Shown here piece after piece: positions 7,153 to 31,284 of a stretch of 32,000 bases of DNA (position 1 is its first letter; each line of letters begins with the position of its first letter). A program made the translations under genes and the position numbers. The DNA comes from Nonlabens ponticola. Lineage in GTDB: Bacteria; Bacteroidota; Bacteroidia; Flavobacteriales; Flavobacteriaceae. The DNA is taken from NCBI RefSeq assembly GCF_003966335.1, contig NZ_CP034549.1:30001-62000 (forward strand), in the 5' to 3' direction. The notes under the pieces are model-generated. The model saw only the letters and a list, made by a program, of their open reading frames with translations. It was not told where the DNA came from and searched no databases.

Positions 7153-7173
7153 TTAGCTTTCACGAAAGCGTAA
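7153..7173. repeat. Degenerate copy of the 22-nt palindrome TTACGCTTTCGCGAAAGCGTAA (one deletion, one substitution)
   Basis: The sequence is ttaGCTTTCaCGAAAGCgtaa, in the intergenic region between the adhesin gene and the tRNA. Confidence 0.7.
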
Positions 7174-7393
7174 TACGTAAAACAGCCTATCTAAAAGAGT
7201 GTGTTTTTTGCGCATAATGCCGCGACCGTAAGATTATGATTTAACCCTTAACAAAGATTAAGGCTCTCTAATAATCAGTGTATGGCCAGATAAAGTGACG
7301 CATAGAGATTAAGTGATTGATAAAAAAACAGAAGCGTAGATGTATAGGATAAAGCAAAATTATCGCGTTGAATGCTCGTCAAGTTCTAGCAAT

Positions 7394-7422
7394 AAAAAAA
7401 GCCTTTCAGTTTCCTGAAAGGC
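7394..7422 (-). terminator. Rho-independent terminator downstream of tRNA-fMet
   Basis: The minus-strand RNA reads AAGCCUUUCAG-GAAA-CUGAAAGGCUU followed by UUUUUUAUU. This is a 9-11 bp stem with a GNRA tetraloop and a U tract. Confidence 0.75.
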
Positions 7423-7430
7423 TTGCTTAG

Positions 7431-7503
7431 TAGCGGGAACTGGACTCGAACCAGTGACCTTCGGGTTATGAGCCCGACGAGCTACCTACTGCTCTATCCC
7501 GCG
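7431..7503 (-). tRNA. Initiator tRNA-Met (anticodon CAT)
   Basis: The reverse complement folds as a 73-nt cloverleaf: CGCGGGA TA GAGC AGTAGGTA GCTC G TCGGG CTCATAA CCCGA AGGTC ACTGG TTCGAGT CCAGT TCCCGCT A. Initiator hallmarks are present: a 1:72 mismatch (C1/U72), A11:U24, and three G:C pairs at the base of the anticodon stem. The segment GCTCGTCGGGCTCATAACCCGAAGGTC is identical to the E. coli tRNA-fMet as I remember it. CCA is not encoded. Confidence 0.92.
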
Positions 7504-7645
7504 ATATGGACGGCAAATATACAACTATTTCTAGATGCACAAAGCATGGATCACTAAATATTCTCGTCCTAGCGTTAAACATGTCTCAAATGACAGGTTA
7601 TTAAGATTTTGCAATCTCTTTCATTTTATCTTCAAACAAAAAATC

Positions 7646-8098
7646 ATGGATACGCAAGAAAAATTAAATGCCTTATTAGAAAAGACCTATGATGCACAAC
7701 GAGGTTATGCCAATGCAGCTGAAATGGCAAAAGATCCCAATGTCAAAAACTGGTTAGCACATCAGGGCGCGCGTCGTACCGAATATGCAGCCGCTATTAC
7801 AGGCGAGATGAAAGGTATGAATAAAGAACCAGAGCTGGACGGCAGCATGACCGGTGACTTACACCGCAGCTGGACTAATATTAAAGCGGCGTTGAGCAGT
7901 GAAAAGGATGAGATTGTTCTTGAAGAATGCATACGAGGCGAGAAAGCCGCGGTTGAGGAATATGAGGATGTATTAAATGATGCCTCTCACCTGCCACCAA
8001 CGGTAGTAAGTATCCTACAGGCGCAAAAGGATGAAATATCTGCAACGATTAATTCAATCAAGCGCATAGAAGATATCGTTGAAAATTCAAATGACTAA
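7646..8098 (+). CDS. PA2169/DUF2383-family four-helix-bundle (ferritin-like) protein, 150 aa
   Basis: This is the track ORF 7535..8098. I place the start at the internal ATG 7646 (MDTQEKLNALLEKTYDAQRGYANAAEMAKD...), because the upstream 37 codons are basic, low-complexity sequence running toward the divergent tRNA. The pattern YDAxxGYxxAAE...RRTEYAAAI...EECIRGEKAAVEEYE resembles the TIGR02284/PF09537 family. Confidence 0.6.
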   Translation: MDTQEKLNALLEKTYDAQRGYANAAEMAKDPNVKNWLAHQGARRTEYAAAITGEMKGMNKEPELDGSMTGDLHRSWTNIKAALSSEKDEIVLEECIRGEKAAVEEYEDVLNDASHLPPTVVSILQAQKDEISATINSIKRIEDIVENSND

Positions 8099-8123
8099 AT
8101 CACATCATTGAAATGTCAAAACA

Positions 8124-8149
8124 AAACCAGACTCGCGTCTGGTTTTTTT
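8124..8149. terminator. Bidirectional rho-independent terminator between convergent genes
   Basis: The sequence is aaaaccagac-tcgc-gtctggtttt, a 10-bp stem. A T tract follows on the + strand and TTTTGTTTT follows on the minus strand. Confidence 0.75.
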
Positions 8150-8327
8150 ATTGACCTATTTCTCTAGCCTCAAAACTTACCAACTCGCCATCTTCAAAAG
8201 CTACTGATAACTCAATTGGATTGCAACAGACCTCACAATCTTCTACATAGGTCTGACTATACGCTGGATCCAGCAACATAGATATTTGCTGCCAGCAGTG
8301 TGGGCAAGAGAAAAAGTGCTCAATCAT
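8148..8327 (-). CDS. CPXCG-motif cysteine-rich small protein (59 aa), not in the ORF track
   Basis: My manual translation is MIEHFFSCPHCWQQISMLLDPAYSQTYVEDCEVCCNPIELSVAFEDGELVSFEAREIGQ*. The two Cys pairs (CPHC ... CEVCC) and YVEDCxVCCxPI match the CPXCG family (PF14255) as I remember it. Its ATG (8327-8325) overlaps the TGA of the upstream OMF gene (8326-8324) as ATGA. Confidence 0.75.
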   Translation of the reverse strand: MIEHFFSCPHCWQQISMLLDPAYSQTYVEDCEVCCNPIELSVAFEDGELVSFEAREIGQ

Positions 8328-29685: not shown

Positions 29686-30509
29686 ACAAGGATCGACTTT
29701 ATACTGTCCTTGCTCAACCTGAACAGGTTCATGCAGATGATTTGCCATCGCTGGATCATGTAATAGAATCCTATCCGTATTTTCAAGCCGCTCGCAGTGT
29801 GCGGCTCAAATGCCTGCACAACAATAGCAGTTCTTTATATAATAAAGAGTTGCAGGCAACAGCTGCTCATACGGCAGATAGATCTGTTTTATTTGATTTT
29901 ATAACTAGTGAAGAGTTTTTGCAAAATCGCATAAGCGAGCAAATCAAGAAACGTCAAGACCATCTAGAATCTATCGAGGTAGATGCCGAAGAAATAGAAA
30001 TAGAAAGTACAGACCTCAACGCAGATACCGATTTTACGCAGGTGATTGATGTAGACCTATTTCAAAAAAAGGAATCCATAGTAGACCAGCCGCTCACCTT
30101 TTACAGCAATGAAAAATATAGCTTTACCGAGTGGCTGAGACTTACCCAACTCAAACCTATTGACCGAACTGAAGAAAAAAAGAAATCGTCTGCAGGTCAA
30201 AAAGCTACAAAGCCAGTAGATACCAGCAAGAAATTGCGCCAACGTCAAATGGAGAAGATTGATCAGTTCCTAGCTGATAAACCTAAAATCAAACCTCGTA
30301 AATCCAGTACGAGTGACACACCGCTGCAATTGTCAAATGACAACAGCAAACAACTAATGACTGAGACACTTGCACAGGTTTATCTCGCCCAAAAAAACTA
30401 TGAGAAAGCGATAAAATCCTATGAGATATTGATATTGCAGCATCCAGAAAAAAGTGGTTTCTTTGCAGACCGAATTCAGGAAATCAAAAACCTACAAAGT
30501 AATACTTAA
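29679..30509 (+). CDS. Hypothetical protein with a C-terminal TPR-like helix pair
   Basis: The protein is 276 aa with a charged, low-complexity middle. The C-terminus AQVYLAQKNYEKAIKSYEILILQHPEKSGFFADRIQEI resembles a single TPR. It overlaps lptE by 7 nt and abuts secG. Confidence 0.6.
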   Translation: MVNKDRLYTVLAQPEQVHADDLPSLDHVIESYPYFQAARSVRLKCLHNNSSSLYNKELQATAAHTADRSVLFDFITSEEFLQNRISEQIKKRQDHLESIEVDAEEIEIESTDLNADTDFTQVIDVDLFQKKESIVDQPLTFYSNEKYSFTEWLRLTQLKPIDRTEEKKKSSAGQKATKPVDTSKKLRQRQMEKIDQFLADKPKIKPRKSSTSDTPLQLSNDNSKQLMTETLAQVYLAQKNYEKAIKSYEILILQHPEKSGFFADRIQEIKNLQSNT

Positions 30510-30842
30510 ATGACTACGTTTTATATATTTCTAGGCCTTATCGTACTGGTAGCCTTTCTATTAGTTGTTGTGATTATGGTTCAAAACCCTAAAGGTGGTG
30601 GACTTTCTTCCAGCTTTGGAGGTGGTGGCACACAGCAATTAGGTGGTGTAAAAAAGACTGGAGACTTTCTAGACAAGAGTACTTGGGTACTTTCTACAGC
30701 ACTGTTGCTATTGATTCTTGCAGCAAGTACTTTCCTGATCAAGGAACGTCAAGGCAACACGATTCAAATCACAGATCCTAGCGCCGTTGAAACTCCTGTA
30801 ATCCCAGCAAACGATAACACCGTACTGCCAGAAACTGAATAG
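30510..30842 (+). CDS. secG: Preprotein translocase subunit SecG
   Basis: The protein is 110 aa. It has a TM helix followed by the conserved Q-N-P-K-GGG stretch (VIMVQNPKGGGLSSSFGGGG) and then a second TM helix. Confidence 0.88.
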   Translation: MTTFYIFLGLIVLVAFLLVVVIMVQNPKGGGLSSSFGGGGTQQLGGVKKTGDFLDKSTWVLSTALLLLILAASTFLIKERQGNTIQITDPSAVETPVIPANDNTVLPETE

Positions 30843-30863
30843 TACATTTCAACATATACTGAC

Positions 30864-30897
30864 AAAATATCCAGCTATACCAGCTGGATATTTTTTT
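30864..30897 (+). terminator. Rho-independent terminator after secG
   Basis: The sequence is atatccagct-atacc-agctggatat, a perfect 10-bp stem at 30867-30891. Flanking A:T pairs extend it, and it is followed by TTTTTTT. Confidence 0.8.
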
Positions 30898-30925
30898 ATA
30901 TGATGTTTTGTCAGCAAACATGGCG

Positions 30926-30940
30926 TGGCACGTTAATAGC
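30926..30940 (+). promoter_or_regulatory. Candidate sigma-54 (-24/-12) promoter upstream of groES
   Basis: TGGCACG-ttaa-TAGC compares with the consensus TGGCACG-N4-TTGC. The GG (30927-28) and GC (30939-40) have canonical spacing. The predicted TSS is near 30952, 27 nt before the groES ATG. No TAnnTTTG box lies in this spacer. Confidence 0.4.
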
Positions 30941-30978
30941 CTTACACAAGCATATTAATCAAATAAACATTTATTCAA

Positions 30979-31254
30979 ATGGCATTAAATATTCAACCTC
31001 TCTCAGATAGAGTTCTTGTCGAACCTATGGCCGCAGAACAAAAAACAGCGTCTGGTTTATACATTCCTGACACTGCTAAAGAGAAACCACAACAAGGTAA
31101 AGTGGTGGCTGTAGGTAAAGGGAAAAAGGATCACGATATGACTGTAAAAGTGGGTGACACCGTGCTTTATGGTAAGTATGGCGGCACAGAGTTAAAGCTG
31201 GATGGTAACGACTATTTAATGATGCGAGAAGATGATATTCTTGCAATCGTGTAG
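30979..31254 (+). CDS. groES: Co-chaperonin GroES
   Basis: The protein is 91 aa: [46 protein letters not shown]..., with a typical mobile loop and beta-barrel. Confidence 0.97.
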
Positions 31255-31262
31255 ATAGATTG

Positions 31263-31284
31263 TTACGCTTTCGCGAAAGCGTAA
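31263..31284. repeat. Perfect 22-nt palindrome TTACGCTTTCGCGAAAGCGTAA in the groES-groEL spacer
   Basis: I checked the base pairing position by position, from 31263<->31284 through to 31273<->31274. Confidence 0.95.

Follow-up and report, generated by a model that had tools for sequence, protein, structure and literature searches.

A highly iterated, lineage-specific DNA palindrome in Nonlabens, Dokdonia and related Flavobacteriaceae

The 12-nt palindrome CTTTCGCGAAAG recurs within a 32,000-nt stretch of Nonlabens ponticola DNA (NZ_CP034549.1, positions 30,001 to 62,000; hereafter the window, in whose numbering all coordinates are given) and is present both in genes and between them. An earlier note, made from the letters of this stretch, had drawn attention to the repeat and to its likeness to the iterated palindrome HIP1 of cyanobacteria and to the uptake sequences of other bacteria. 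This raises the question of what kind of element the palindrome is, how widely it is distributed and what may keep it in place.

The palindrome and its copies in the window

The core of the motif is the perfect palindrome CTTTCGCGAAAG, in which two CpGs and the palindromes TCGCGA and CGCG can be read from the sequence. Its usual full consensus is the 16-mer CGCTTTCGCGAAAGCG, which is nested in a weaker 22-mer consensus, TTACGCTTTCGCGAAAGCGTAA; in its 12-14 nt form the core is GCTTTCGCGAAAGC, and the ideal 20-22-mer form is (T)TACGCTTTCGCGAAAGCGTA(A). The window holds perfect copies of CTTTCGCGAAAG at 9637, 14419, 15813, 26326 and 31268 and one-mismatch copies at 7157 (CTTTCACGAAAG) and 20485 (CTTTCGCGGAAG). 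All of these copies, with their extensions to 14, 16 and 22 nt, were re-found where the earlier note had placed them, and gene calls agree with its division into four copies within coding sequences (9637, 14419, 15813 and 20485) and three in intergenic DNA (7157, 26326 and 31268).

Among the genic copies, a perfect 14-mer GCTTTCGCGAAAGC (9636..9649) lies in the signal peptide of a TolC-like outer-membrane efflux protein encoded on the minus strand and is translated as ...VF-AFAKA-ESQQ. A second perfect 14-mer GCTTTCGCGAAAGC (14418..14431) is read LSRK in the variable C-terminal linker of a minus-strand ABC-F ATPase gene, and a perfect 16-mer CGCTTTCGCGAAAGCG (15811..15826) is read AFAKA at about codon 88, likewise in ABC-F ATPase coding sequence. 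The one-mismatch 16-mer CGCTTTCGCGGAAGCG (20483..20498) falls in a variable linker of gldL on the minus strand. The first of the intergenic copies is a decayed 22-mer, TTAG-CTTTCACGAAAG-CGTAA (7153..7173), located upstream of a DUF2383 gene, with a tRNA gene ~260 nt away; in Nonlabens sp. Hel1_33_55 the corresponding intergenic spacer holds a perfect copy. The second is a perfect 12-mer with its right arm alone extended, CTTTCGCGAAAGCGGTAT (26326..26343), in the divergent intergenic region that separates topA and a Flavo-1 RNA from miaB. The third is a perfect 22-mer TTACGCTTTCGCGAAAGCGTAA (31263..31284) that begins 9 nt past the groES stop codon and precedes groEL. Three copies have the right arm GAAAGCGGTA(T/C) in common, at 15820, 20492 and 26333.

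Over-representation and distribution among genomes and phages

The seven matches with at most one mismatch in the window compare with a mean of 0.06 (largest value, 1) over 100 shuffles that preserved dinucleotide composition, and for the 12-mer an order-1 Markov model predicts ~0.002 per 27 kb. DNA that was not selected for the motif yielded 24 perfect 12-mers in 115 kb, where ~0.001-0.002 are expected per locus. Across Nonlabens and Dokdonia, and in genes as well as intergenic DNA, over-representation exceeds 1000-fold relative to the order-1 model. The very large excess claimed at the outset therefore holds genome- and clade-wide and is not a chance enrichment confined to the window. It also survives correction for composition and CpG. 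The accompanying description of the window as low in G+C has to be amended to ~41% outside a tandem-repeat gene at 1-6885 (57% G+C). A zero-truncated Poisson fit to 71 blocks gives one 14-mer per 6.7 kb, and the density in Nonlabens and Dokdonia amounts to approximately one copy every 5-7 kb (~150-210 per Mb), at which a 3-Mb genome would carry roughly 400-600 copies. Block positions place these copies in a scatter along complete chromosomes.

A motif scan was run over 185,579 species genomes, and 120 matches were sampled as 8-kb blocks. About 91 of these 120 blocks derive from Nonlabens, Dokdonia or unnamed Flavobacteriaceae, and the 29 blocks from other lineages hold one copy each, as tallied on 25 full-length 8-kb blocks. 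Syntenic loci of the outgroup genera Abyssalbus and Zunongwangia contain zero copies at up to one mismatch. The motif is thus a lineage-specific, highly iterated DNA palindrome that is spread across the marine flavobacteria Nonlabens and Dokdonia and their uncultured relatives in the Flavobacteriaceae. Among the papers searched, none prints the motif sequence in a relevant context, which agrees with the earlier opinion that this is not a described element, and the motif did not prove to be part of a known, annotated repeat family.

The motif is also carried by three kinds of temperate phage, which bear it at host-like density within structural genes (capsid, tail). No copies are present in the lytic Nonlabens phages P12024S and P12024L, two closely related phages of one genus that make up the whole lytic set. 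Among phages, accumulation of the motif is therefore seen in temperate ones that reside in these hosts and not in the two lytic ones tested.

Constraint on the DNA and conservation of sites

The motif behaves as an indivisible unit that acts at the DNA level. Every TTCGCGAA 8-mer sits within a full motif, the half-site CGCTTTCG occurs 275 times within the motif versus 22 times alone, and the 142 perfect copies outnumber all one-off variants together (26). The flanks carry a preference that differs by genus, with TACG...CGTA in Dokdonia and TCCG, TTCG or TACG in Nonlabens; the flank consensus is TTACG. There is also a strand-symmetric skew in which the 5' side is C-poor and the 3' side G-poor, and copy flanks show no sequence conservation past 22 nt.

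Approximately 70% of copies are genic (117/169 to 116/150), and the intergenic share of ~23-31% compares with ~8% of the DNA. All three reading frames are used (62 AFAKA, 28 LSRK and 26 FRES), with the AFAKA frame favoured. The codons for AFAKA are GCTTTCGCGAAAGCG in all 11 cases from unselected DNA and in 60 of 69 over all loci, and FAK is written as TTCGCGAAA in 11 of 13 cases as compared with 0.3 expected from codon usage. The DNA that encodes AFAKA uses rare codons, and the peptide is often found at signal-peptide cleavage sites; in-gene copies in general favour weakly constrained parts of proteins such as signal peptides and the linkers of ABC-F, GldL and TopA. Occurrence in three frames together with the near-fixed AFAKA and FAK codons indicates that the constraint is on DNA and not on protein. 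The motif forces particular codons and peptides and so rewrites protein sequences.

Orthologous copies are kept far beyond neutral expectation. In the aligned region, three of three in-gene N. ponticola copies are identical in four Nonlabens species, and one of these is also identical in Dokdonia, against a background in which 0.72% of 12-nt windows are identical across the four species. For example, the TolC-like copy (9636..9649) is perfect in four Nonlabens species and in Dokdonia MED134 with differing flanks, while the outgroups in the Abyssalbus/Zunongwangia comparison have GFTQE or VNAQE at this position instead of AFAKA. The ABC-F linker copy (14418..14431) is identical in the four Nonlabens species even though only about a third of the flanking columns are conserved, and Dokdonia has a deletion where this copy would be. 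The other ABC-F copy (15811..15826) is likewise kept in four Nonlabens species, and Dokdonia has AFKEI encoded by different DNA. The gldL variant occupies the same position in N. ponticola, Hel1_33_55 and N. marinus, and is absent from the aligned position in N. ulvanivorans and Dokdonia. Lineage-specific in-gene copies in an arginase-like gene of N. ulvanivorans and in the Dokdonia DAO gene were gained without length change or target duplication; the constant length indicates that they arose by substitution.

Related elements and possible functions

The resemblance to HIP1 and to uptake sequences that had been proposed for the window is supported by the use of all frames, moderate intergenic enrichment, orthologous conservation, lineage-specific flanks and protein re-coding. 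The motif is not HIP1 itself, as it reads CTTTCGCGAAAG and not GCGATCGC and is hosted by Flavobacteriaceae rather than by a cyanobacterium. Both words are perfect palindromes with a CpG-containing core and huge lineage-wide over-representation, and the at least 15-fold lineage-wide excess in genes and intergenic DNA by which HIP1 is recognized is seen here as well. Both also occur in several frames and between genes, arise by substitution, have conserved orthologous sites (HIP1, PMC5861425; for the motif, 3/3 versus the 0.72% background) and carry flank extensions that vary between genomes (HIP1, PMC4390886). They differ in that the motif is 12-22 nt long as opposed to 8-10 nt, is ~5-20 times rarer (~150-210 versus 300-2700 per Mb; HIP1, PMC4390886), is limited to a few genera in Bacteroidota whereas HIP1 spans a phylum, Cyanobacteria, and has perfect copies that clearly exceed one-off variants. 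Selection conserves HIP1 sites (PMC5861425), and HIP1 boosts transformation efficiency (10.1101/2024.09.10.611283) and is a proposed uptake sequence (10.64898/2026.06.24.733823); it is further linked to orphan methyltransferases (PMC4390886), none of which is known for the motif. The motif is most aptly characterized as an iterated palindrome of the HIP1 or uptake-sequence kind in a further phylum, the Bacteroidota.

The DUS of Neisseria and the USS of Pasteurellaceae show the same properties of placement, frame, flanks and perfect to one-off ratio as the motif. The motif is one short word common to related genera that has lineage-specific 'dialects' (one copy per 5-7 kb with genus-specific flanks), it is about two-thirds genic with an intergenic excess, and it often lies just past genes. 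Its in-gene placement is weakly constrained with favoured frames (signal peptides and the ABC-F, GldL and TopA linkers; AFAKA), and its ratio of perfect to one-off copies is high. However, known uptake sequences are asymmetric, 9-12 nt long, form terminators only as inverted pairs and are about five times denser, while the motif is palindromic and longer. Additionally, competence has been demonstrated for the hosts of DUS and USS, and receptors such as ComP are identified there; neither is known for Nonlabens or Dokdonia.

Strict two-fold symmetry over approximately two helical turns, the lack of within-genome base-pair covariation and the genus-specific flanks suggest that the motif is a putative site for a sequence-specific, probably homodimeric, double-stranded DNA-binding factor that co-evolves with it. 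Its most likely role, which we put forward tentatively and by analogy, would be that of a 'self-DNA' tag in DNA uptake or recombination. The motif would then be a palindromic counterpart of DUS, USS and, according to recent work, HIP1 of cyanobacteria. Tagged fragments would preferentially be taken up or recombined, and this bias, which combines molecular drive with selection, would propagate copies and preserve them at any site that the proteome can accommodate, as may be the case at signal-peptide cleavage sites, in linkers and in the first nucleotides past stop codons. Riemerella, which belongs to the same order, has natural competence and favours its own DNA (PMC7965970), but the finding that Flavobacterium johnsoniae is not transformable under Riemerella conditions (PMC7965970) counts against an uptake role. 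Also against it, selection for a chromosomal function predicts positional conservation equally, uptake drive does not specifically predict that temperate phages carry the motif as densely as their hosts, and the strand-symmetric flank skew is left unexplained by an uptake model.

A chromosomal function is a possible, if somewhat doubtful, alternative in which some 500 palindromes would be bound by a dimeric nucleoid or chromosome-organizing protein that thereby shapes or partitions the chromosome, its sites being conserved by selection for this function. Dispersal along complete chromosomes, retention of copy positions in orthologous genes and a two-fold symmetric consensus of 16-22 bp without within-genome base-pair covariation all fit such a protein, and the conservation and periodicity of HIP1 have been read as a chromosomal or structural function (PMC5861425). 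The Noc NBS, SlmA SBS, MatP matS and ParB parS sites resemble the motif in being perfect or near-perfect palindromes of 12-16 bp that dimers bind, located both within and between genes. In its xTTTC...GAAAx shape the half-site is reminiscent of parS and NBS, although TTTC and GAAA are 2 nt apart in the motif and 4 nt apart in those sites. Known nucleoid-protein sites number tens per genome and are degenerate and regionally confined (those of Noc, SlmA, MatP and ParB range from a few to ~70 per genome), unlike the hundreds of near-perfect copies seen here. Weak selection on each site would hardly keep perfect copies above all one-off variants, and temperate phages have no obvious gain from copies in capsid and tail genes.

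A model that reportedly was advanced for HIP1 by Elhai invokes a methyltransferase plus repair. Applied here, a modification enzyme acting on the CGCG/TCGCGA core, coupled to biased repair of the short-patch or mismatch type, would turn near-matches into a word that serves no function itself. We regard this as unlikely. In its favour, the core has two CpGs and the TCGCGA and CGCG palindromes typical of type II targets, the N. ulvanivorans arginase-like and Dokdonia DAO copies were newly formed by substitution, a slow mutational process fits build-up in resident DNA and absence from lytic phages, and HIP1 is tied to such orphan enzymes (PMC4390886). Conversely, a specificity of 16-22 nt far exceeds known methyltransferase or Vsr-type targets, TCGCGA and CGCG have an unremarkable frequency outside the motif, and one-off variants show no surplus of CpG-to-TpG decay. 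The same positions across species, for which HIP1 provides a parallel (PMC5861425), indicate maintenance rather than continual random re-creation.

It is less probable still that the motif functions as a hairpin in RNA or single-stranded DNA, such as a stabilizer of mRNA 3' ends, an atypical terminator that lacks a U-run or a processing site. In this reading the 22-mer would form a stem of 9 bp closed by a CGCG loop immediately past stop codons. Many intergenic copies do begin 4-30 nt past a stop codon, including the groES copy and, at the Dokdonia MED134 locus, five of seven. The 22-mer has a folding energy of -8.3 kcal/mol, which becomes -13.5 kcal/mol (z = -3.4) within its groES surroundings, and pooled complementarity at flank position +/-3 is above that of shuffles. 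This covariation nevertheless disappears with within-genome shuffling (p = 0.16), termination would be harmful in the ~70% of copies that are genic, and lytic phages manage without the motif. An Rfam scan matched only Flavo-1, a tRNA and, by chance, a snoRNA, and no copy overlaps any of these. An intrinsic terminator is rejected, as no copy is followed by a T-run, the 3' flank is A-rich, none was called terminator-like and most are genic; canonical terminators are present elsewhere in the genome (e.g., 30864-30894). The earlier statement that the motif is not simply a terminator or an operator is borne out, and it is not a REP element, a MITE or a known RNA either.

Least credible, to the point of being very improbable, is copying by transposition as a REP-like element moved by a RAYT-type transposase or as abutted IS inverted repeats: the hundreds of near-identical ~20-nt palindromes, their presence in temperate phages and some intergenic copies that look inserted relative to other species (Dokdonia columns 9871, 12315 and 19071) would fit, but positions are stable over genus-level divergence, the near absence of lone half-sites means that no longer parent element with such ends is seen, and the two lineage-specific in-gene copies lack length change and target duplication. 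MITE or IS terminal inverted repeats fail on these in-gene gains, on the rarity of lone half-sites and on the 22-nt limit of conservation, and REP/RAYT membership fails on the mostly intragenic location and the missing GTAG head. REP and BIME elements, as imperfect palindromes of ~20-35 nt that are often past stop codons in hundreds of copies, are similar in number and placement; they are extragenic, GTAG-headed, often REPIN doublets and species-specific, whereas the motif is a single perfect palindrome that is mostly intragenic and shared across genera.

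Enrichment of the palindrome in the window and across its clade

The 12-mer CTTTCGCGAAAG has five perfect matches in the window, at 9637, 14419, 15813, 26326 and 31268, as well as two one-mismatch matches at 7157 and 20485, and it is the only palindromic 10- or 12-mer that occurs there more than once. The very large excess that the earlier note had read from this stretch is borne out both by dinucleotide-preserving shuffles of the window, which give a mean of 0.06 matches and a maximum of one, and by an order-1 Markov model allowing for G+C and CpG, under which about 0.002 copies are expected in the 27 kb that exclude a tandem-repeat gene. 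The same note had described palindromic extensions to 14, 16 and 22 nt, which inspection of the flanks confirmed, and a division into four genic and three intergenic copies, with which the gene calls agree.

Two of the genic copies lie inside an ABC-F ATPase gene (14155-16086, minus strand), one (20485) is in gldL and one is in the signal peptide of a TolC-like gene that forms part of a TolC-AcrB-HlyD efflux operon. The mechanical open reading frame of the TolC-like gene (8324-9940, minus strand) encodes 538 aa from a TTG start and overlaps acrB by about 250 nt, while its orthologues are 445-466 aa long. The true start is probably near 9700, which would make the 9637 copy coincide with the place where the signal peptide is cleaved. 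The perfect 22-mer is intergenic and starts 9 nt past the groES stop codon. Other genes in the window encode a tRNA, a DUF2383 protein, a DAO oxidoreductase, GldNMLK, an arginase-like protein, TopA, MiaB, a sigma-54 activator, LptE, SecG and GroES.

There are no copies in the giant repeat protein gene at 1-6885 (minus strand). This gene has an open frame of at least 2295 aa with a signal peptide near 6830, and the frame is cut off on the left by the window boundary. Its tandem repeats (at 128-4282; at least 11 nearly identical units of 381 bp or 127 aa) have 57% G+C in a genome of about 41% G+C, along with a strong AT skew. At the matching place Nonlabens sp. Hel1_33_55 encodes a 5366-aa CLIPPER_2/CHU_C (T9SS-type) protein.

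The enrichment extends well beyond this stretch. A scan with GCTTTCGCGAAAGC of one genome per species (185,579 species) returned at least 120 hit blocks of 8 kb each. About 91 of the 120 blocks listed belong to Nonlabens, Dokdonia or unnamed Flavobacteriaceae MAGs, many with two or three copies, and the remaining 29 come from scattered, mostly high-G+C lineages. Non-flavobacterial blocks hold exactly one copy each (counted on 25 full-length 8-kb blocks), which is what chance predicts. A zero-truncated Poisson estimate from the 71 full-length flavobacterial blocks listed gives one 14-mer per 6.7 kb. DNA that was not selected for the motif, namely the window and four syntenic loci (115 kb), contains a perfect 12-mer every 4.8 kb (24 in all), and 7 copies fall within 22 kb of Dokdonia MED134. 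Copies are thus present in unselected DNA and across the clade, which excludes an enrichment limited to this window. No copy at one mismatch or fewer was found in 22 kb of the same gene order from Abyssalbus ytuae and Zunongwangia mangrovi, which represent two outgroup genera. The motif is shown to be a lineage-specific iterated palindrome that is kept at the DNA level by selection or drive.

Anatomy, protein imprint and turnover

A flank profile built on 149-168 copies has C at position -2 in 80% and G at position +13 in 81%, neither of which was used in selecting loci, with further preferences for T at -4 and -5 and for A at +15 and +16. Because of these flank preferences the ideal site is TTACGCTTTCGCGAAAGCGTAA, to which intergenic copies come nearest, and the profile shows no conservation past about 22 nt. 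The palindrome behaves as an indivisible unit. In unselected DNA every TTCGCGAA 8-mer lies within a full 12-mer, and the half-site CGCTTTCG occurs 275 times within the motif versus 22 times alone, the solo cases being mostly decayed motifs. Perfect copies (142) outnumber all one-off variants (26 in total), half of which are hit at the outermost position. A one-base variant, CTTCCGCGAAAG, is found at two unrelated loci, in gldL (window 20485, and at 5513 and 5549 in the compared loci L121 and L122) and at the 3' end of topA (L121 2545, L122 2567), and is kept from species to species; rather than decaying at random, it may represent a sub-form that is tolerated or has a function. Over about 20 nt per side, C makes up just 2-9% of the 5' flank, which is rich in T and G; the 3' flank is poor in G and rich in A and C. 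This skew is symmetric between strands and is seen in intergenic copies and in three reading frames (window and loci L002-L124), and it is not accounted for by base pairing or by any hypothesis considered here.

Long open frames make up about 92% of the DNA and contain roughly 69-77% of the copies, which amounts to an approximately three-fold intergenic excess. The copies in genes are read in all three frames, giving 62 cases of AFAKA, 28 of LSRK and 26 of (R/S)FRES. Of 256 synonymous options for AFAKA, GCTTTCGCGAAAGCG is used in all 11 occurrences in unselected DNA and in 60 of 69 overall; among its codons, TTC serves for a minority of Phe (20-25%) and GCG for a minority of Ala (13-15%). Likewise, TTCGCGAAA accounts for 11 of 13 FAK occurrences where codon usage predicts 0.3. 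On this codon evidence the peptide is dictated by the DNA word and not vice versa; a protein-level cause, in which a conserved peptide would give rise to the DNA repeat, is ruled out by the use of three frames, the near-exclusive codon set and the rare codons. About 15 of 66 AFAKA copies end a typical signal peptide (for example ...LMYLAFAKAYAQQ), including that of the TolC-like protein in the window, at which place outgroups have GFTQE or VNAQE. The motif provides an example of a DNA word forcing the peptide AFAKA onto signal-peptide cleavage sites.

Conservation of individual copies was followed by aligning 19-22 kb of syntenic DNA from N. ponticola, Nonlabens sp. Hel1_33_55, N. marinus, N. 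ulvanivorans and Dokdonia MED134, which share 59-73% pairwise nucleotide identity. Among strains of N. ulvanivorans, ABC-F is at least 99% identical. Both ABC-F copies and the copy in the TolC signal peptide are perfect and identically placed in each of the four Nonlabens species, and the TolC copy is perfect in Dokdonia MED134 as well. As background, the share of 12-nt windows without any difference is only 0.72% among the four Nonlabens genomes and 0.37% among all five, and in the flanks of the TolC copy and of the second ABC-F copy only about one third of the columns are conserved. Dokdonia has a deletion in the ABC-F linker that holds the second copy in Nonlabens. The gldL copy is an identical one-base variant in three species. 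Turnover is also apparent, with private copies in the arginase-like gene of N. ulvanivorans and in the DAO gene of Dokdonia. Neither private copy changes the length of its gene, which indicates gain by substitution. Five more Dokdonia copies lie 8-15 nt past stop codons. Flank preferences differ by genus, with TACG...CGTA favoured in Dokdonia and TCCG, TTCG and TACG used in Nonlabens.

Candidate mechanisms

Dyad symmetry over about two helical turns, sharp specificity and lineage-specific flanks lead us to infer that the motif is probably recognised as double-stranded DNA by a dimeric factor. The reading that we place first, although it is a tentative one based on analogy, is that the motif may be a self-DNA tag for uptake or recombination. 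This ranking follows from placement that is like that of uptake sequences and HIP1, together with precedents from HIP1 and Riemerella. Conservation of HIP1 sites by selection has been reported (PMC5861425), HIP1 boosts transformation efficiency in a methylation-dependent manner (10.1101/2024.09.10.611283) and a role as an uptake sequence has been put forward for it (10.64898/2026.06.24.733823). Riemerella, a member of the same order, is naturally competent and prefers its own DNA (PMC7965970). Against a self-DNA tag, known uptake sequences are asymmetric and denser.

A site that structures the nucleoid is possible but has a lower probability than the self-DNA tag. An ordinary operator is rejected since near-perfect sites number in the hundreds and lie mainly in genes. 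It is unlikely that the motif is a by-product of methylation or repair; TCGCGA and CGCG outside the motif occur in unselected DNA at ordinary frequency, neither avoided nor in excess, and no CpG-decay signature was seen in the one-off variants.

Slightly less probable again is a role as an RNA or single-stranded DNA hairpin. Complementarity at flank position +/-3 exceeds that of shuffles when copies are pooled (p < 0.0002) and is above expectation within each genus, but is not significant when shuffled within genomes (p = 0.16). We therefore attribute the pooled covariation chiefly to flank preferences of the lineages and not to base pairing, and set it aside as support for a functional hairpin. 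The RNA hairpin of the 22-mer is modest at -8.3 kcal/mol. An intrinsic terminator is excluded by the lack of a T-run after any copy, the A-rich 3' flank and the location of most copies in genes. As the earlier note had anticipated, the motif is therefore not simply a terminator or an operator. A terminator scan called no motif copy and found a canonical terminator after secG (30864-30894, plus strand), with a 13-bp stem followed by a T-run, so this genome does use ordinary terminators. A known RNA family is also rejected because Rfam gives just the tRNA and a Flavo-1 RNA nearby. The latter (RF01705, 58 bits, E = 2.6e-10) lies at 26173-26263 on the minus strand upstream of topA, 63 nt from the copy at 26326, and is not known to have a function.

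A mobile mini-element is very improbable: a MITE, IS ends or a longer mobile element is contradicted by the absence of internal or flanking conservation, the few solo half-sites and the gains without indels, and a REP/RAYT-like element by the mostly intragenic location and the lack of a GTAG head.

Iterated words that span a whole lineage are rare, and every one of them has proved informative. The uptake sequences DUS and USS brought sequence-biased DNA uptake to light, Chi did so for recombination control, and HIP1 is a 30-year puzzle that is only now being linked to transformation. The present motif is a clear variant of the class formed by HIP1, DUS and USS. The resemblance to HIP1 and uptake sequences that had been suggested from the window holds in rules of placement and in positions shared between species: copies occur in variable protein regions with one frame favoured, signal peptides are frequent hosts, sites often lie just past stop codons and the intergenic excess is moderate. 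As a variant, the motif is in a new phylum, is a much longer palindromic word, is confined to a few genera and leaves a visible imprint on signal peptides and temperate phages. A literature search of incomplete coverage found neither the sequence in a relevant context nor an iterated palindrome in flavobacteria, and nothing relevant on palindromes or repeats in Nonlabens and Dokdonia genomes, which agrees with the initial impression that this is not a described element, although an earlier description is possible.

As a HIP-like system the motif is the second of its kind and independent of the first; it comes from another phylum and has a much longer and sharper recognition sequence. Its hosts, such as Dokdonia MED134 and the Nonlabens species of rhodopsin work, are cultivable and genetically simple marine models, and their tractability makes what maintains such palindromes directly testable. 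A PacBio sequence of Dokdonia donghaensis already exists (PMC4974333). It is conceivable, if rather doubtful, that Nonlabens, Dokdonia and their relatives possess a new sequence-specific self-DNA recognition system, whose tag for uptake or recombination would be the first that is palindromic and the first of any type in Bacteroidota. In such a system a dimeric receptor would read the 16-22 bp word, the drive would be strong enough to recode hundreds of protein segments, signal-peptidase cleavage sites included, and the word would be copied by temperate phages. If true, abundant marine flavobacteria would exchange genes to a major extent by natural transformation, a route that has been overlooked in them, and HIP1 and the motif would be the same strategy invented twice independently. 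The motif is also a likely aid, or caveat, in genetic transformation of these bacteria.

The motif in temperate and lytic phages

In IMG/VR the 16-mer was found in 40 stretches, with several low-G+C contigs holding 3-7 copies of the 12-mer each. The motif-bearing viral contigs represent three kinds of temperate phage: a myovirus, HK97-like siphoviruses that carry an integrase gene, and a Mu-like phage. The myovirus has portal, terminase, protease, capsid, sheath and baseplate genes and is related to Winogradskyella phage Peternella_1. Temperate phage contigs (L144, L161, L164 [IMGVR_UViG_3300040781_000495]; L130, L154, L128 and others) have a host-like motif density, with some copies within structural genes. 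Two lytic siphoviruses of Nonlabens differ in this respect: P12024S (L165) and P12024L (L168), of 35.7 kb each, have no copy at two mismatches or fewer where about 5-7 would be expected at host density; being closely related, they count as one sample. From this difference between temperate and lytic phages, it follows that the motif accumulates in DNA that is long resident in these hosts. As a host signature, it could be used to assign metagenomic contigs and temperate phages to the clade and to flag phages of Nonlabens and Dokdonia. P12024S and P12024L each encode their own DNA methyltransferase.
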